Source of the DNA: a virus
Strand: one strand, 5' to 3'
Virus record (IMG/VR): IMGVR_UViG_3300021090_000013
Coordinates: 1-64,000 of that record
DNA: 64,000 nt
Shown: positions 4,281 to 64,000 of the stretch, piece after piece
Layout of the letters: each line of letters opens with the position of its first letter
Numbering within the stretch: position 1 is the first letter of the stretch
The notes under the pieces: model-generated
Databases searched by the model: none
What the model saw: the letters and a program-made list of their open reading frames with translations, nothing else
What the model was told of the DNA's origin: nothing
Program-made: the position numbers and the translations under genes

Positions 4281-5258
4281 ATGTTGAGCCTGCTTCATGC
4301 CGTAGCTGGTCGCCCCTGGGCGATCCAGGCCGAGATAGCGTTCCACATCCGGGGCTTGCTGGCCAAGGAGGGGATCGCCGGCCTACGCCATCTCGCGGAG
4401 CTCAAGAGCGGCGTCCACGCCTTCGACGAGGACCGACCGCGCGCCGCCAGTCGCCAAGCGTTCATGGACACGGGCGGCACCGTGGCGGTCATCCCGGTCA
4501 TCGGTACGCTGACCCAGCGCGGAGACATGATCGGCAGCGCCCAGACGCGGTCGACCGCCGAGATCGCTGCCGAGGTGCGGGCGGCCGCTGCCGAGCCATC
4601 AGTCGACGGCATCTTGCTTGAGATCGACTCCCCGGGCGGGGAAGTGTTCGGCATCCCCGAAGCGTGGGCTTCGATACGCGAGTCCGGCCGGATGAAGCCG
4701 GTCGTAGCGCACGCGAACAGCATCGCGGCTTCAGCGGCTCTCTACCTGGCGAGCGCGGCCAATGAGTTCTGGATCACGCCCAGCGGCGAGGCGGGTAGCG
4801 TGGGCGTCTACGCGCTCCACGTGGACATGGGCAAGGCTCTGGAGAGCATGGGTGAAGCCTGGGACTTCATCGTGGCCTCCAAGAGCCCCTACAAGATCGA
4901 GGGCAACCCATCAGGCCCGCTCACCGACGAAGCCAGGGGATACCTCCAGCGGAACATCGACCGCTATATGGGCATGTTCCTGCGCGACCTCGCCCGCGGC
5001 CGCGGCGTGTCGGAGAAGCGCGTTGAAGCGGACTTCGGGGGCGGCCGGATGCTGAATCCAGCCCAGGCTGTCGCTGTGGGGATGGCTGATGGGGTGGCCA
5101 GCTTCGATCAAGCCGTCAGGCGATCGGCAGACCTCGGGCGCCATCGCGGAGGCGGCCCCCGGGCGGACCTTGCAGGGCCAGAACCGGTCGCGGAAGATCC
5201 TGCCGCTCTTGCGGCCTGGGCAGCTCTTGCCGGCGTGAAATTGGAGGGACTCGAATGA
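4281..5258 (+). CDS. S49 family prohead protease
   Basis: LEIDSPGGEV, AASAALYLASAA, AGSVGVY motifs; between portal and capsid. Confidence 0.9.
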   Translation: MLSLLHAVAGRPWAIQAEIAFHIRGLLAKEGIAGLRHLAELKSGVHAFDEDRPRAASRQAFMDTGGTVAVIPVIGTLTQRGDMIGSAQTRSTAEIAAEVRAAAAEPSVDGILLEIDSPGGEVFGIPEAWASIRESGRMKPVVAHANSIAASAALYLASAANEFWITPSGEAGSVGVYALHVDMGKALESMGEAWDFIVASKSPYKIEGNPSGPLTDEARGYLQRNIDRYMGMFLRDLARGRGVSEKRVEADFGGGRMLNPAQAVAVGMADGVASFDQAVRRSADLGRHRGGGPRADLAGPEPVAEDPAALAAWAALAGVKLEGLE

Positions 5259-5647
5259 GCGTACTTGTGGCAACCCCGCTTGAGGCCGCCGGTGTCAATC
5301 TCTGCACGACGCTGACCGGTAACGTCGACTCCACGAACACGATGGACCGCGGCTACACCCTCGGGGGCCCGTCCCTCCTGCGGGTAACCTCGACCATCGG
5401 GGCGGGGCCGACCGTGAAGTTCGACATCCAGGGCTCGATGGATGGTGTCGTGTTCTTCAACGTCCCCTATAGCCTGATCGCCACGCCGGAGACCTGGGTG
5501 GTGGCGCAGATCACGATCACGACGGCGGTCACTGCCTACTACGTCCTCAAGGGCAATGTGCCCTGGAAGTACCTCAAGACAGTGATGAGCCTGAACACGA
5601 ACGTGACTCTCACCGTGGACGCCTGGCCCACGTATTACAAGGGCTAA
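5255..5647 (+). CDS. hypothetical head-region protein (beta-rich)
   Basis: Coupled to protease stop; phage-like codon usage. Confidence 0.65.
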   Translation: MSVLVATPLEAAGVNLCTTLTGNVDSTNTMDRGYTLGGPSLLRVTSTIGAGPTVKFDIQGSMDGVVFFNVPYSLIATPETWVVAQITITTAVTAYYVLKGNVPWKYLKTVMSLNTNVTLTVDAWPTYYKG

Positions 5648-5659
5648 GAATGGGGGGGC

Positions 5660-5679
5660 TTGACAGCCTATGGTATAAT
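5660..5679 (+). promoter_or_regulatory. putative late promoter: TTGACA-N8-TATAAT (extended -10 TGnTATAAT)
   Basis: TTGACA gcctatgg TATAAT in the intergenic gap before the capsid gene. Confidence 0.6.
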
Positions 5680-5757
5680 CCTCAGTGACGTAGAAAGGGC
5701 TCCGGTCGCCTCAGCCTTCGGGCCTCTCCGACCGACCATCGCAGCACCGCGCCACTG

Positions 5758-5819
5758 GCGCCCCTGCTGTTTCGGCATCTGACGTTTTTCAGGTGCCGGC
5801 CAGGGGCGCTTTTGCTTTT
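5758..5819 (+). terminator. intrinsic terminator-like hairpin in capsid gene leader
   Basis: GCGCCCCTG/CAGGGGCGC outer stem and CGGCATCTGA/TCAGGTGCCG inner stem, followed by TTTTGCTTTT. Confidence 0.65.
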
Positions 5820-5844
5820 CCGGGCCGGCGCATCAGGAGCTGCG

Positions 5845-7227
5845 ATGGAACGACTAAAGGAACTCGAAGTCGATCGCGAGGATCGGCGCGCCCAGGTGAA
5901 GGAGATCCTGACCGCGGCCGGCAAGGACAAGCGGACCTTGTCCGAGGACGAGCGGCAGAAGGCCGCGACCCTCACCAAGGAACTCGAGCAGATCGAAGCG
6001 ACGATCAAGCTCGAGGAGCAGACGCTCGACTGGAACCGGACCTCAGCCGTTGCGGTCGATCGCCCCGCCGGCGAGGTGACCAAGCCGTTCAAGCCCTACG
6101 CTGCGGGTCTCGGGGGTGCCAAGAACCCCTGGGGAGATTGCAGCAACGAACGCGGGCTGCAGATGGCATTCGGCAGCTTCTTGCAGGCCGTGGCGTCGTG
6201 CGCCAAGGGTGGCCCATCAGACCCCCGCCTCTCCATGATGCCGATGGCTGCCGCCAGCGGCCTCAACACGTCGGTGGGCTCCGAGGGCGGCTTCCTCGTC
6301 CGCACCGACTTCTCGACTGCGCTACTGGCGCGGGCGATGGGGGAATCAGTCCTAGCCAATCGCTGCACCACGATCGACATAGGGGACGGTTCGGATGGCA
6401 TCGAACTGCCCTACATCGACGAGACCAGCCGGGCGACCGGCTCTCGCTGGGGCGGCGTCCAGGTCTACCGGCGCGCCGAGGCGGACACCGTCACCGCGTC
6501 CAAGCCGAAGCTCGGAATGCTGGAGATTCGGCTGGAAGACCTGATGGGAATCTGCTACGCGACCGACCGCTCCCTGCGTGACGCGACCAGCCTCGGTCAG
6601 ATCATCCAGACGGCGTTCTCGTCCGAGTTCGCCTTCCGCGTCGACGACGAGATCATCCGTGGTTCTGGCGCCGGGCAGTGCCAGGGCCTGCTGTCCTCGG
6701 GGGCCCTCGTGAGCCAGGCAAAGGAAACGGTCCCCGCCCAGCTCGCGGACACGTTCATCACCGAGAACGCGCTGAAGATGCGTTCGAGGATGCCCGCCAG
6801 GCTCCGCAGCGACGGCGCATGGTACATCAACATGGAGTTGGAACCGCAACTCCCGATGATGACCGTCAAGGTTCTCAACGTGGCTGGCACCGAGTGGGTC
6901 GGCGGAGGCGCTCCGATCTACATGCCGGCGAACGGTCTCGCTGGCCAGCAGCACGACACGCTCTTTGGGAAGCCGATCATTCCCATCGAGCAGTGCGCGG
7001 CCATCGGAGACAAGGGTGACGTCTTCTTCCTCGCCCTCCGCGAATATCTGCTCATCCGCAAGGGTGCGCTGGAGACGGCGGAATCCATCCACGTGCGCTT
7101 TCTCTACGGGGAGAACACGTTCCGCTTCACCTATCGAATCAACGGGGCTCCGGCCTGGAAGACCAGCCTGGCTCCCTACAAGGGCACGCTGGCCCTCAGC
7201 CCCTTCGTCACACTCGACGCGCGGTAA
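5845..7227 (+). CDS. major capsid protein, HK97 fold with N-terminal delta domain
   Basis: AGGAG RBS; coiled-coil N-terminus; EGGFLV, TLFGKPII, and SPFVTL at the C-terminus. Confidence 0.95.
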   Translation: MERLKELEVDREDRRAQVKEILTAAGKDKRTLSEDERQKAATLTKELEQIEATIKLEEQTLDWNRTSAVAVDRPAGEVTKPFKPYAAGLGGAKNPWGDCSNERGLQMAFGSFLQAVASCAKGGPSDPRLSMMPMAAASGLNTSVGSEGGFLVRTDFSTALLARAMGESVLANRCTTIDIGDGSDGIELPYIDETSRATGSRWGGVQVYRRAEADTVTASKPKLGMLEIRLEDLMGICYATDRSLRDATSLGQIIQTAFSSEFAFRVDDEIIRGSGAGQCQGLLSSGALVSQAKETVPAQLADTFITENALKMRSRMPARLRSDGAWYINMELEPQLPMMTVKVLNVAGTEWVGGGAPIYMPANGLAGQQHDTLFGKPIIPIEQCAAIGDKGDVFFLALREYLLIRKGALETAESIHVRFLYGENTFRFTYRINGAPAWKTSLAPYKGTLALSPFVTLDAR

Positions 7228-60380: not shown

Positions 60381-60665
60381 ATGGCTTGGACCGCACCAAG
60401 ATCTTGGGCTCAGGGCCAACTCGTCGAGGCTGCCGATCTGAACGAGCAGGTGCGGGACAACCTCGCACACCTGAAGTTGCTCGTGAACGACGACGGCAAG
60501 ATCCCGATCCTAAGTGACACCTATCTAGCCGATCTCTCGGGAGCGAATCTCACAGGAGTCGCCAAGATCGCCGCGAATAACGACTTCACGGGGGTAAACA
60601 ATTTTGGCTTTGGCATAGGTGCTCGCCTGATCCTTCCGACCGGTTCCGATCGATGGGCGACATGA
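60381..60665 (+). CDS. minor tail protein, short paralog of the HxD protein N-terminus
   Basis: MAWTAPRSW...RDNL..LK...NNDFTG...RLILPTGSD. Confidence 0.75.
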   Translation: MAWTAPRSWAQGQLVEAADLNEQVRDNLAHLKLLVNDDGKIPILSDTYLADLSGANLTGVAKIAANNDFTGVNNFGFGIGARLILPTGSDRWAT

Positions 60666-61606
60666 GCTGGACGACGCCGCGCACATGGGTCGACGGGGAA
60701 GTGACCACGGCGGCTCAGTTCGATGCCCACATTCGCGACAACCTAACGGTGCTGAAGGTCACACGCAACGCCGAGGGGCGGCTGATAGAACTCTCTAGCA
60801 CGACCATTGAGGACCTCACCGCACCCGATAAAGGCATGGCGGGGGTTGGGAGTAACAACAACTTCACGGGCGGGTCGACGAAGTTCAGCGGAGCCGGAAG
60901 GTTGGTTCTTCCCGTCGGTGCGGACAAATACGTGTCATACCCCTTCGGCCTTCGTTCGGGATTCTGGGTCGAGGGTGACTATCTGCACCACGTCCAGAGC
61001 GACCAGACGACAGAATGGCATTATCTCGGCGAGTACGTATCGACGCCAGCGGGCGCAGTGCCAGGCTCTATCTGGGTCGAGGGCAATTACCTCCACTACA
61101 TCGACGCCGACGGCGACGAGCGGCGGTGTCTCTCGGCCGGCGTAACGGGACACGCCGACGCGGCTGCGGTCGGCGGCTCGACATGGGTCGAGACGTTCGT
61201 TCACTGGATCCGTGAAGCCGGGGCCCTGGAATGCCCGGGACATGCCGACGTCGCCCATGCGGACGGGTCCGAGCACAACGACGGTCACGGGGACCTCGCG
61301 CATGCGGACTCGCACGCGGACTCCGGCCATGCGGACTCGCACACGGATGGAGCGCACGCCGACGAGCACTTCGATGTTGCGCACGCCGACGACCATGACG
61401 ACCACGGCGACACGCTCGACACGCCCAACCACGCCGACGAGCACTTCGATGTTGCGCACGGTGACGTGCACGTGGACTACCACTTCGACACGCATGCCGA
61501 CGAACCGCATAGCGACGACCACAACGACTCGCACACCGACTGGCATTTCGACCACGAGGATTATTCCGACTCCCCGACGCTGAACCAGCCAACGGTGGTT
61601 GTGTGA
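60662..61606 (+). CDS. tail-fibre-like protein with C-terminal His-Xaa-Asp repeat array; putative radical SAM substrate
   Basis: MSWTTPRTWVDGE N-terminus, three WVE repeats, 24 HxD triplets. Confidence 0.85.
   Translation: MSWTTPRTWVDGEVTTAAQFDAHIRDNLTVLKVTRNAEGRLIELSSTTIEDLTAPDKGMAGVGSNNNFTGGSTKFSGAGRLVLPVGADKYVSYPFGLRSGFWVEGDYLHHVQSDQTTEWHYLGEYVSTPAGAVPGSIWVEGNYLHYIDADGDERRCLSAGVTGHADAAAVGGSTWVETFVHWIREAGALECPGHADVAHADGSEHNDGHGDLAHADSHADSGHADSHTDGAHADEHFDVAHADDHDDHGDTLDTPNHADEHFDVAHGDVHVDYHFDTHADEPHSDDHNDSHTDWHFDHEDYSDSPTLNQPTVVV
61241..61570 (+). repeat. His-Xaa-Asp coding array with an exact 31-bp internal duplication (61355-61385 = 61430-61460)
   Basis: Counted from translation and DNA. 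Confidence 0.9.
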
Positions 61607-62814
61607 GTGTCGAGGTGAACATCGTTGGGACGCGGTGCAAGATGGCTTGCGCCTATTGCTACCAGTTGCCCGTACGCGTGGCGACGAACAACCGTGCACT
61701 GCGCCTCCTCGACCATTCGGCGATCCGTGCGGCGGTCGTAGCGGCGAACCCCGGCCCTGCCGGCTTCAGCATCTTTGGAGGCGAGCCGCTTCTCGCGGCG
61801 ATCGAGGATCTCGAAAAGCTCTGGACCTTCGGCCTCGAGCGCTACGGGAAGAATGGAGTCCAGACGAGCGGCTCGGAGATCGGGGAGGAGCACCTCGCGC
61901 TGTTCAAGAAGTACCGGGTCCACGTCGGGTTCTCCATCGACGGGCCAGGGGAATTGAACGACGCCCGGCATGCCGGCACGCCAGACCAAACCCGCGCGGC
62001 CACAGCTCATTCCGAGGCGATGCTGAGGCGGTGCCTGGCGGAGAAGGTCGGCGCGTCCCTGATCGTGACCCTACACCGCCTCAACGCAGCGCCCGATCGA
62101 CTCCCGCGCCTTCTCGCCTGGTTCCGCGATCTCGACGCCGTTGGCCTCTCCAGCGTGCGGCTTCACCTCCTGGAGCGAGATGGGCCAGGCGGCGAACGCC
62201 TTGCGCTGACATCGGAGCAGAACACGGCCGCGCTCTTCGCCGCTCGCGACCTGGAGCCGTCTCTCGCTCGACTAAAGTTCGACGTCTTCGCCGACATCGA
62301 GAAGAAGCTCCTCGATCCGACTACGTCGGCGACGTGCGTCTGGAACGGCTGCGATCCCTGGACCACGCCGGCAGTCCAGGGGATCGAGGCCGATGGCTCG
62401 CGGGGCCTATGCCAGCGCGTCCACAAGGACGGGAAGCAGTGGCGTCCGGCGGACCAGCACTCGAACATCCGCCAGGTGGTCCTCTGGAACACGGCGCAAG
62501 AGGACGGCGGCTGCCGCGGCTGCCGGTTCTTCCTGCAGTGCGGCGGACACTGCCCGGGCACTGCGATAGGCGGTGATTGGCGCAACCGCTCAATCGACTG
62601 CCCGACGTGGTTCGCGCTCCTGGAGCGAACGGAGCTGGAGATGGTGGCCCGCGGAGAGCAACCGGCCTCACTCGCCGCCGACCTTGAGGCGCGGATTGAA
62701 CGCTCCCTCGTCGGAGCCGCTGCGCCGAGCGGCCATGGGGACGCACACGGAGACTCTCCACACGGTGACGATCACGGAGACCATACGGACGCGGGCGACG
62801 AGGGGCACGCATGA
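61603..62814 (+). CDS. radical SAM/SPASM domain peptide/protein maturase
   Basis: CKMACAYC (CxxxCxxC), FGGEPLL, SIDGP...ND.R, C-terminal CRGCRFFLQCGGHCP SPASM-like cluster. Confidence 0.92.
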   Translation: MSVEVNIVGTRCKMACAYCYQLPVRVATNNRALRLLDHSAIRAAVVAANPGPAGFSIFGGEPLLAAIEDLEKLWTFGLERYGKNGVQTSGSEIGEEHLALFKKYRVHVGFSIDGPGELNDARHAGTPDQTRAATAHSEAMLRRCLAEKVGASLIVTLHRLNAAPDRLPRLLAWFRDLDAVGLSSVRLHLLERDGPGGERLALTSEQNTAALFAARDLEPSLARLKFDVFADIEKKLLDPTTSATCVWNGCDPWTTPAVQGIEADGSRGLCQRVHKDGKQWRPADQHSNIRQVVLWNTAQEDGGCRGCRFFLQCGGHCPGTAIGGDWRNRSIDCPTWFALLERTELEMVARGEQPASLAADLEARIERSLVGAAAPSGHGDAHGDSPHGDDHGDHTDAGDEGHA

Positions 62815-64000
62815 CCGACCTTCCCCGTGAGTGGTGCCGGCCACCACAGTGGCTCGCTGGCGATTCGCGCGAGGCCTGGGAACCCGTCCTCCGTGCCGCC
62901 CAGGCCGCGTGGTCAGGGCTCGAGCTCGTCTCGATCACCGAGGGCCTGCGCGAATCCGCCATCGTCCATCTCGAGGCTGACGATCTCGCGCGCGCCGGGG
63001 CTGACGTCTCCCGGGTAGGCTTGGCCCTGTCGGTGCTGGAGCACAAGGAAGGCTCCTTTCGTGCGGTCGTGCACCATCCCCGCCTGGCCGCGGCCTGGCA
63101 TGCGGCCTGGGCTGCCGGCGATCACGAAGCGGTCGGCGTGCTGCTCGGCTTTCCGGCCTGCTGCCGCGCCTTCTTCTCCCGCGAGTGGGTCGCCGCCGGC
63201 TCCTACCGCGACCTCACCTTCGCCATGGACACGGTTGATGGCCCGTGGGAGGCGAACACGATGCTGCGCTGGCTCGGCGTCCGGCTGGTGCCCCACCTGC
63301 CCTGCAGCAGCTCGTGCGCCGAGACAGTCGCCCAGGCGCGGGCCTACCTGGAGGCGGGGCGCAGGGCCGGGGTCGACGTTGCGTCCCTGGAGACCGTCCT
63401 CAGGCTGCCAGTGACCCACGATGCGGCCAACGAAGTGGCGATCGTCAGCACGCCGCACTTCCGGTTCCTGGCAGGCGCCGACCGTGGGGCGAAGCGGGCC
63501 GTGGCCCGGAGATCCCAGGAGGAGCCCGGGAGCTGGACCGACAACGGCTTCGCGTCCCACGCGGCCATGGACCAGGCCCACGGGGCAATCCTGAGAGTGG
63601 TCGGCTGGGAGGCGCGGTCCGGGCTCGACCTTGGCTGCGGTGATGGTCGACTCTTATGGAGGGCCGCCCGTCCAGCCAGCGGGCCCTGGGATGGGGTCGA
63701 GTCCGACCCGGGCAGGGCCGAACGCGGGAGCCGCCGCTACGGGCCGCTGGTCACGGTGACCACCGGGAGGATCCAGGACGCCGACCTCTCGGCGGCGACC
63801 TACGACGTCGTCTTCTTGATGCCCGGCCGCCTGGTGGAGATGGACCCGCTGGAGGCCGCCAGGATCCGGGCCGCGCTGCCGGGCCTCGGGCGCCGGCTCG
63901 TCTTGTACGCCTACGGAGACTGGCTCGCAGACGGGCTACCGGCCCTGGCTGAGCGAGCAGGCCTGGGCGTGGTCGGAGACGTCGCCACCTCGCCCGGCAC
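62811..64000 (+). CDS. DUF483-like domain fused to class I SAM methyltransferase (3' truncated by window edge)
   Basis: Hand translation with no stop from ATG 62811: LLGFPACC..FF, RLVPHLPCSSSC, then GLDLGCGDGRLL...GVESD. Confidence 0.8.
   Translation, partial: MTDLPREWCRPPQWLAGDSREAWEPVLRAAQAAWSGLELVSITEGLRESAIVHLEADDLARAGADVSRVGLALSVLEHKEGSFRAVVHHPRLAAAWHAAWAAGDHEAVGVLLGFPACCRAFFSREWVAAGSYRDLTFAMDTVDGPWEANTMLRWLGVRLVPHLPCSSSCAETVAQARAYLEAGRRAGVDVASLETVLRLPVTHDAANEVAIVSTPHFRFLAGADRGAKRAVARRSQEEPGSWTDNGFASHAAMDQAHGAILRVVGWEARSGLDLGCGDGRLLWRAARPASGPWDGVESDPGRAERGSRRYGPLVTVTTGRIQDADLSAATYDVVFLMPGRLVEMDPLEAARIRAALPGLGRRLVLYAYGDWLADGLPALAERAGLGVVGDVATSPG

Follow-up and report, generated by a model that had tools for sequence, protein, structure and literature searches.

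An open frame at the end of a stretch of virus DNA, directly behind a radical SAM (rSAM) gene and a gene for a His-x-Asp (HxD) repeat fibre-like protein, raises the question of whether it is a real gene and, if so, what its product might do in this cluster. The window analysed here, i.e., the whole stretch of DNA examined, is 64,000 nucleotides long and covers positions 1 to 64,000 of IMG/VR record IMGVR_UViG_3300021090_000013. A sequence-only reading had proposed that the frame, said to be missed by the gene track (a point that rests on that reading alone), fuses a Cys-motif, DUF483-like domain to a SAM methyltransferase (MT). It was suggested to be a tailoring enzyme for the array, acting for example by His N-methylation or by Asp methylation leading to isoAsp. 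We find that the frame and its motifs are real, so the observation is confirmed. The interpretation is supported only in part: the domain make-up and the linkage to the rSAM and the arrays hold, while the role in methylating the array remains an inference.

The gene and its two domains

The frame comprises 396 codons within the window, and the full gene of 405 codons ends at record base 64028 (4812..6029 in locus L002). All four motifs named in the sequence-only reading are present: LLGFPACC..FF (aa 111–122), PHLPCSSSC (aa 161–169), WTDNGF (aa 242–247), and LDLGCGDG (aa 272–279). A chance ORF in GC-rich DNA can be rejected because the protein is conserved at the amino acid level, with 211 homologs at E ≤ 0.001, most listed rows covering over 90% of the query, and 717 cluster representatives at E ≤ 1e-10. 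Neither PHROGs nor NCBIfam contained a family for this protein.

Table 1. Features of the gene and its upstream neighbors (window coordinates, all on the plus strand).
Position	Feature	Residues	Remarks
60653..61606	Fibre-like protein with C-terminal His-x-Asp array	317 aa	Presumed substrate of the cassette
61603..62814	rSAM/SPASM enzyme	403 aa	Predicted binding partner; CxxxCxxC at C12/C16/C19, 8 further invariant Cys, C-terminal HxD tail
62811..64000	DUF483-like + class I MT gene	405 codons in all	Last 9 codons and stop at record 64001-64028
62811..62814	ATGA overlap of start codon with rSAM stop codon		Translational coupling
62811..63524	N-terminal DUF483-like domain	aa 1-238	Predicted to fold confidently as a unit of its own (pLDDT 92.9, pTM 0.88)
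62838..62861	N-terminal strand	aa 10-17	Predicted to pair with rSAM residues 278-285; includes W14, near-invariant (conserved in 90% or more)
63159..63164	C117-C118 of the LGFPxCC motif		First half of putative Cys4 metal site
63294..63317	H162-L-P-C165-S-S-S-C169		Second half of putative metal site
63525..64000	Linker and class I SAM MT domain	aa 239-405	Runs to record base 64025
63627..63647	SAM-binding motif I	D273-L-G-C-G-D-G279	

The C-terminal half is an intact class I SAM-dependent MT. It scores 30 bits with Pfam Methyltransf_25 (PF13649; cut-off 27 bits, E 8.4e-7, aa 272–342), and 38 of 43 homologs also hit this model. D273, G275, and G277 of the glycine-rich motif I are invariant in 120 of 120 aligned rows, and motif I was found in 70 of 71 viral ORFs examined. 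In the structural model (pLDDT 94.1), residues 237–405 match SgvM (Z 14.5, rmsd 2.8, 154 residues aligned) and NodS (Z 14.1, rmsd 3.4, 154 aligned), with Foldseek E-values of about 1e-7. Fold searches with the whole protein saw only this domain, and its neighbors are mostly small-molecule O-, N-, and C-methyltransferases which do not point to a protein substrate.

The N-terminal half is a distant relative of DUF483 (PF04467) rather than a member by Pfam's rule, as it scores 12.2 bits (E 0.19) against a gathering cut-off of 25 bits, and 14 bits when the genome DNA is searched (63123–63335). The relationship is nevertheless supported by close relatives: 19 of 43 homologs hit DUF483 at E ≤ 0.01 (best 9.2e-6), and the relative P0276, found with the N-domain profile at E 2.8e-51, passes the cut-off with 29.6 bits. 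In the ESM Atlas the structural neighbors (TM 0.84 and 0.82) are clusters in which 43% and 20% of the members carry DUF483.

In an alignment of 120 rows C117 is conserved in 117, C118 in 118, C165 in 119, and C169 in 120. The only substitute seen at C165 is His, in the one remaining row and also in Thermus phage Cumys. These four near-invariant Cys residues suggest a metal site, although this is inferred from sequence alone. A motif pattern for the Cys residues matched only 53 of 71 ORFs because its spacing was too strict, and we therefore rely on the alignments.

The N-terminal domain has no informative solved relative. A profile search of PDB sequences gave 0 hits at E ≤ 10, Foldseek against the PDB gave nothing at E ≤ 0.001 (the best was 2guk, of unknown function, at E 0.041), and a wide VIA-align search returned 2guk at Z 7.1 (rmsd 3.5, 103 aligned) and nothing else above Z 5.6. 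Viral structures in BFVD also gave nothing at E ≤ 0.001. No RRE, peptidase, or Fe-S fold appeared in these lists, which does not exclude them.

Linkage to an rSAM enzyme and His-x-Asp/Asn arrays

A single-sequence scan of viral contigs found no relatives, whereas an alignment query found 82, of which 80 were kept. Absence of co-occurrence with HxD/rSAM loci elsewhere had been named beforehand as a point against the reading, but of 76 related viral loci 71 have an rSAM/SPASM homolog upstream on the same strand, with an HSP gap of 150 nt or less in 50 of them. The 5 loci without one are truncated, starting within 300 nt of the contig end. Clustering of ORFs over 77 loci revealed only three widely conserved plus-strand families: the MT fusion (77), the rSAM (72), and the fibre/array proteins (70). 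Two minus-strand clusters (64 and 63 loci) overlap the rSAM gene and are read as antisense shadows, and the next cluster reaches 18 loci. In a genome collection a single strict pattern found only one Vicinamibacteria MAG with two copies plus one weak hit, which does not measure the range in cellular genomes.

H-x-D/N arrays lie upstream in 67 loci including the window. They contain 2665 H-x-D and 593 H-x-N among 3653 H-x-X triplets, although the filter required D+N of at least 50%. Asn outnumbers Asp in 6 of the 67 loci, while His is the constant residue, and Asp methylation or isoAsp formation is therefore less likely as the general role. The array proteins vary between 220 and 1476 aa with tens of repeats, and in the loci read they end in H[ST]DQPVL[VI]G-like tails.

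The rSAM scores 39.5 bits with Radical_SAM (cut-off 29.5), and C12, C16, and C19 plus 8 further Cys are invariant in 58 sequences, but the SPASM model TIGR04085 scores only 20.5 bits against 27. Its best NCBIfam hits are cyclophane-forming and other SPASM peptide maturases (AmcB, DynA, YhhB, and XyeB). All are far below their family cut-offs (AmcB, the best, 57.4 bits against 425), and the rSAM thus belongs to none of the named cyclophane-synthase families (AmcB, YhhB, XyeB, FxsB, GrrM). The rSAM family has a conserved C-terminal PHGDxHGDHxD tail. In at least four loci (L022, L032, L036, and L050) an ORF of about 131 aa with two HADHVDETGxY motifs lies between the rSAM and the MT gene.

Complex prediction placed the N-terminal domain on the SPASM region of the rSAM with an ipSAE of 0.83 (runs 0.84, 0.83, and 0.81) against a best control of 0.01. 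Partner pLDDT is at least 86 and the runs agree in at least 40% of contacts. The mark used was reached by 58 of 80 solved complexes and 2 of 110 mismatched pairs, but these counts hold only roughly as our own alignments were used, and the score is a model's confidence rather than a measurement. One relative (P0186) carries an N-terminal PqqD domain (PF05402) at 39.4 bits against a cut-off of 23.4. PqqD is a RiPP recognition element. This fusion is 1 of 120 representatives, the window protein itself gave no PF05402 hit, and no separate PqqD-like ORF was found in the viral loci by phmmer.

A possible role in modification of the fibre

We consider it more likely than not, with moderate confidence, that the gene encodes the constant third component of a three-part phage cassette, together with one or more tail-fibre-like proteins ending in a long His-x-Asp/Asn array and an rSAM/SPASM enzyme of the peptide-maturase type. 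In this view the N-terminal domain, carrying a Cys4 site probably for a metal, would dock through its N-terminal strand and C-terminal sheet onto the SPASM region and make a two-subunit maturase. The fused MT would then use SAM to methylate the same substrate, most plausibly at the imidazole of the invariant His, during or after rSAM modification of the triplets. That modification would, by analogy, be a three-residue His-to-X3 crosslink, as enzymes are known that make His-C2 to X3-C-beta rings on HAA, HNR, and HTK motifs (PMC11499958). What the analysis establishes is the gene, its domains, their conservation, the strict linkage to the rSAM and the arrays, and the position in the tail module. 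The contact with the rSAM is a prediction, whereas metal binding, the crosslink, methyl transfer to the array, and the acceptor atom are inferred, with no chemistry shown for any component. As the N-terminal domain is predicted to bind the rSAM and occurs without any MT in Cumys, the conserved role looks like that of an rSAM partner with the MT as an add-on, rather than a plain tailoring enzyme, and methylation is not essential to the module.

A less likely alternative is that the DUF483-like domain is the whole conserved function, an rSAM accessory subunit acting as scaffold, substrate presenter, or metal/Fe-S carrier, while the MT acts on something else, such as the C-terminal HxD tail of the rSAM, the small HADHVD proteins of some loci, or a small molecule. 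The lack of an MT in Cumys, the existence of stand-alone forms of 242–332 aa, and the small-molecule fold neighbors of the MT fit this view. However, the MT is kept with invariant SAM-binding residues, and the arrays are by far the most abundant conserved H-x-D/N target next to the gene. Modification of phage DNA, as guessed in a preprint on Thermus phages that reports rSAM and DUF483 homologs in cyanobacterial genomes among deazapurine DNA-modification genes (10.1101/2024.08.14.607894), seems improbable; the place next to fibre genes would then be incidental. The arrays form one of only three conserved families, the preprint's unknown protein is itself an HxD array, the rSAM resembles peptide maturases, one relative has the PqqD fusion, and no DNA-binding domain or DNA-metabolism neighbor was seen among the conserved clusters. 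Least likely, the N-terminal domain could be a Cys/His-dependent hydrolase that trims the conserved C-terminal DQPVLVG end of the array proteins, in the way a RiPP leader or follower protease would, with the MT acting separately. E38, D134, R158, and the four Cys are invariant in alignments of 43 and 55 rows and near-invariant in that of 120 rows. Yet no fold or profile match to a peptidase was found, the Cys-to-His swap at C165 fits a metal ligand better than a nucleophile, and H162 is replaced by W, F, or Y in 9 of 218 aligned rows, which argues against a catalytic His.

A bolder possibility, which we hold to be doubtful but not excluded, is that the DUF483 domain is the missing obligate subunit of a maturase that installs tens of His-to-Asp/Asn three-residue rings along a virion fibre, whose ring histidines are then methylated. 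This would be RiPP chemistry applied to a structural virus protein, an unusual case for which the cultured Thermus phage Cumys offers a model, and would give the DUF483 superfamily its first function, as a metal-bearing rSAM/SPASM partner domain. DUF483 is an uncharacterised family, named as a whole word by only one paper and its preprint version in the literature searched. The window and 76 related viral loci now put a large branch of the superfamily into a fixed context and turn an unknown domain into a testable claim, an rSAM partner subunit with a putative metal site plus an optional MT, which also corrects the only printed guess, DNA modification.

Comparison with known systems

The closest system is the rSAM module of Thermus phages Cumys and phiMa, described as an rSAM, a DUF483-domain protein, and an unknown protein (10.1101/2024.08.14.607894). 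We found no description of an HxD-array fibre/rSAM/DUF483 system beyond this preprint in literature searches that did not cover subscription journals. The cultured phage Cumys has the same order after its baseplate and tail-collar-fibre genes: array protein, rSAM, DUF483 protein. A tblastn search with the window protein finds Cumys_11 at E 5e-18, but Cumys_11 has no MT domain. The preprint also mentions DUF483-MT and DUF483-rSAM fusions in InterPro. Here its unknown third protein, Cumys_13, which ends in HADQPVRG, is itself recognised as an HxD array fibre protein, and the N-terminal domain is predicted to bind the rSAM. Compared with the Pfam DUF483 family, the model aligns to aa 105–174 (profile 35–99 of 122), which covers both Cys motifs, but the window protein has about 100 extra N-terminal residues and a fused MT.

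The three-residue cyclophane ("triceptide") rSAM systems acting on His motifs (HaaB, YhhB, and HtkB) share the substrate logic of an aromatic residue, any residue, and then X3, with His in first place. One of their accessory proteins, HtkC, is of unknown role and pulls down with the His-tagged precursor (PMC11499958). Here the presumed substrate is a virion-type protein rather than a short peptide, and the partner is a DUF483-MT protein. With regard to PqqD/PqqE, the window protein has neither a PqqD domain nor an RRE-type match in its fold search. PqqD binds the rSAM-SPASM enzyme PqqE and the precursor peptide, and here too a partner protein is predicted to bind an rSAM/SPASM enzyme, with a real PqqD domain in front of the DUF483-like domain in one relative.

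Gene and domain make-up

The open frame at the end of the window, for which a Cys-motif, DUF483-like domain fused to a SAM methyltransferase (MT) had been proposed from the sequence alone, was confirmed. It is still open at the window edge after 396 codons, and in the full virus record of 73,294 bases, of which the window is the first 64,000, it comprises 405 codons. Its ATG overlaps the TGA of the preceding rSAM gene as ATGA, and the ATG of the next gene overlaps its own stop in the same way. The motifs LLGFPACC..FF, PHLPCSSSC, WTDNGF and LDLGCGDG named by the sequence-only reading are all present. A word-indexed protein search gave 211 proteins at E ≤ 0.001, most of the listed ones covering over 90% of the query with 29–63% identity. 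An exhaustive search of 50%-identity representatives gave 1293 at E ≤ 0.001, 717 at E ≤ 1e-10 and 191 at E ≤ 1e-30, although the weakest of these may match the MT domain alone. An alignment of 43 homologs has 26 invariant columns.

The C-terminal domain matches Pfam Methyltransf_25 at aa 272–342 with 30 bits (cut-off 27), as do 38 of the 43 homologs. The AlphaFold model of the whole protein is confident (mean pLDDT 94.1, pTM 0.69), and residues 237–405 superpose on many class I methyltransferases, the best being SgvM (Z 14.5, rmsd 2.8, 154 aligned) and NodS (Z 14.1, rmsd 3.4, 154 aligned). As the structural neighbors are a mix of small-molecule O-, N- and C-methyltransferases with some protein and RNA enzymes, they say nothing about the acceptor. 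D273, G275 and G277 of motif I are invariant in 120 of 120 aligned rows, H257 is also invariant, and R340, E343, Y366, and Y368 are near-invariant. The domain is therefore under selection to bind SAM.

The resemblance of the N-terminal domain to DUF483 proved right as a lead but weak as a test. PF04467 aligns to aa 105–174, which covers both Cys motifs, yet scores only 12.2 bits against a cut-off of 25, and 14 bits on the DNA. The link holds by transitivity: 19 of the 43 homologs hit DUF483 at E ≤ 0.01, four relatives carry a precomputed PF04467 hit, and the relative P0276, found with the N-domain profile at E 2.8e-51, scores 29.6 bits on DUF483. The ESM Atlas places the domain next to a viral cluster (TM 0.84; DUF483 in 43% of members, together with MT domains) and a bacterial 313-aa cluster (TM 0.82; DUF483 in 20%). 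Folded alone, the domain is confident (pLDDT 92.9, pTM 0.88) but has no informative solved relative. A profile search of PDB sequences gave 0 hits, the best Foldseek match was 2guk, of unknown function, at E 0.041, VIA-align gave 2guk at Z 7.1 (rmsd 3.5, 103 aligned) and nothing else above Z 5.6, and BFVD gave nothing at E ≤ 0.001.

In the 120-row alignment C117 is kept in 117 rows, C118 in 118, C165 in 119 and C169 in 120, while E38 is kept in 112, D134 in 116 and R158 in 118. The single exception at C165 is His, and Thermus phage Cumys also reads PHIPHSLRC there. As a Cys-to-His swap is what a metal ligand allows, we infer, from sequence conservation alone, a Cys4 (or Cys3His) metal site. 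H162 is W, F or Y in some rows and is probably not a ligand.

Conserved genomic context

Lack of co-occurrence with HxD/rSAM loci elsewhere, together with no effect on substrate mass, had been named beforehand as grounds for rejecting a role in this cluster. A profile scan of IMG/VR found 82 relatives, of which 80 loci were kept (loci from all sources are numbered with an L below). Of these, 76 match at E < 1e-10, including near-duplicates (61 distinct identity/score classes), and the other four are weak MT-only matches. In 71 of the 76, tblastn finds a homolog of the window's rSAM (E 1e-63 to 1e-171) upstream on the same strand, with an HSP gap of 150 nt or less in 50, 150–1000 nt in 19 and larger in 2. 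The five loci without an rSAM all have the MT match within 300 nt of the contig start.

All-against-all clustering of every ORF of 70 aa or more around the gene in 77 loci gave three widely conserved plus-strand families: this protein (77 loci), the rSAM (72) and a fibre/array family (70 loci, 129 ORFs) that includes the window's 530-aa, 94-aa, and 317-aa proteins. Two minus-strand clusters (64 and 63 loci) lie over the rSAM gene and are taken for antisense shadows, and the next cluster reaches only 18 loci. The array proteins range from 220 to 1476 aa and carry 20–97 H-x-[DNSE] triplets. Under a filter requiring D+N of at least 50%, 67 loci including the window have arrays, with Asp as third residue in 2665 and Asn in 593 of 3653 triplets. 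Asn outnumbers Asp in 6 of the 67 loci, and His is thus the only constant repeat residue.

In the loci read individually (L022, L032, L036, L046, L050, L055) the array proteins end in a conserved H[ST]DQPVL[VI]G-like tail, and Cumys_13 of Thermus phage Cumys ends HADQPVRG, while the window's protein ends SPTLNQPTVVV. This tail could be a recognition or follower sequence for the maturase. Several loci also have collagen-like Gly-x-Thr proteins among the array genes. The rSAM itself ends in an HxD tail, seen in the window and in L015, L016, L019, L022, L028, L029, L045, L046, L060, L066, and L078. The C-terminal consensus across 58 homologs is HxDxPHGDxHGDHxD, and the tail may be a cis-substrate, a docking tail or a metal-binding tail. 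In a sub-group of loci an ORF of about 131 aa with two HADHVDETGxY motifs lies between the rSAM and the MT gene, and there the rSAM ends PHADHTDxTGKY.

Just beyond the window, the next gene encodes a Cys-rich protein (CGTCG, CWECC, and CAGC motifs) with homologs in only 5 of the 80 loci and no Pfam or PHROG hit. It is followed by an ORF with an HNH-like HHLDHDKKNNDPGNL motif, recognized by eye only, and by a protein starting with the same PRTW..G......N..VRDNLN.L motif as the window's 94-aa and 317-aa fibre proteins. The cassette is therefore embedded in the fibre module. The only cellular genome found by a single strict pattern scan, a Vicinamibacteria MAG, carries two copies of the gene on one contig (L084 and L085), about 2 Mb apart and each 50% identical to the window's protein, which may be two prophages.

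Coordinates of the gene, its neighbors and related features
Feature	Position in window or record	Strand	Position in locus
DUF483-like/MT gene	62811–64028		
rSAM C-terminus with HxD tail	62734–62814		
Cys-rich protein, 173 aa	64026–64547		L002 (locus of this record) 6026–6547
ORF with HNH-like motif, 249 aa	64527–65276	minus	L002 6527–7276
Protein with fibre N-terminal motif, 173 aa	65254–65775		L002 7254–7775
ORF of about 131 aa between rSAM and MT gene			L022 7559–7951
ORF of about 131 aa between rSAM and MT gene			L032 7556–7951
ORF of about 131 aa between rSAM and MT gene			L036 7573–7965
ORF of about 131 aa between rSAM and MT gene			L050 6649–7047
Cumys_13 array protein			L087 (Thermus phage Cumys) 3658–4689

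Predicted partner role of the N-terminal domain

We next modeled the complex of the rSAM and the N domain, using our own alignment of each. The score was 0.83 (runs 0.84, 0.83, and 0.81) against a best control of 0.01, with a partner pLDDT of at least 86 and runs agreeing in at least 40% of contacts. The mark was reached by 58 of 80 solved complexes and 2 of 110 mismatched pairs, counts that hold only roughly here because our own alignments were used. The model supports binding but does not show it. The confident interface joins N-domain residues 2–4, 10–17, 20, 206–209, and 218–228 to rSAM residues 253, 266–303, 325–328, 366, and 369, which lie in the SPASM part. W14 of the N domain and W280 of the rSAM are each conserved in 90% or more of their alignments. 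The Cys site is not among the confident contacts, so it stays free for another role.

One relative (P0186, 627 aa) has a PqqD domain, a RiPP recognition element, in front of the same two domains (39.4 bits, cut-off 23.4), and is the only one of 120 representatives with a long N-terminal extension. Another relative (P0199) has a C-terminal CxxCxxCC metal-chelating domain. The rSAM (403 aa) starts directly with CxxxCxxC and has eight further invariant Cys, and its best NCBIfam hits are cyclophane-forming and other SPASM peptide maturases, all far below their cut-offs.

Together these points favor a protein-modifying system over a nucleic-acid one, in which the DUF483-like domain would be a partner subunit of the rSAM and the MT an added tailoring activity. 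Because the MT is missing in Cumys, methylation would be optional for the module, and because His is the only constant repeat residue, His is the more plausible general acceptor than Asp. The analysis establishes the gene, its domain pair and its place in the cluster, whereas contact with the rSAM is a prediction, and metal binding, methyl transfer and the identity of the acceptor are inferred. The interpretation offered by the sequence-only reading was thus partly supported. Cluster membership and the domain pair are right, but DUF483 holds only at superfamily level, the term tailoring enzyme understates a likely partner role, and the proposed Asp chemistry is the less likely option.

Comparison with known systems

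A tblastn search of GenBank phages found three Thermus phages, Cumys, phiMa, and phiLo. In Cumys the order is baseplate genes, tail collar fibre, Cumys_14, Cumys_13, the rSAM (Cumys_12) and then the DUF483-domain protein (Cumys_11, 312 aa, no MT). Cumys_13 has three GSxWxEG..Y.D repeats like the window's protein, followed by a long HxD array. phiLo (178 kb, L088) has the rSAM (phiLo_142) and a 344-aa putative methyltransferase relative (phiLo_141), but IS605-type transposase genes lie just upstream instead of an obvious array protein, and the 510-aa protein downstream has no HxD array.

The preprint describing Cumys (10.1101/2024.08.14.607894) notes that the rSAM, the DUF483 protein and an "unknown" protein recur in phages and prophages, mentions InterPro fusions of DUF483 with methyltransferase or rSAM domains, and suggests an unknown DNA modification. 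We found no description of the array in the parts of its text examined, figures and supplements excluded, and it was the only paper in our literature search that names DUF483 as a whole word. The fused architecture and the rSAM-DUF483 association are thus already in print at the level of a remark. New here are the identity of the third component as an H-x-D/N array fibre protein across dozens of phages, the predicted contact between the N domain and the SPASM part, the metal-ligand pattern and the PqqD fusion.

Known enzymes of the kind found among the best rSAM hits make His-C2 to X3-C-beta rings on HAA, HNR, and HTK triplets (PMC11499958), and H-x-D/N arrays fit that logic. With these new features, we place the cassette among rSAM/SPASM maturation systems with accessory and tailoring proteins.
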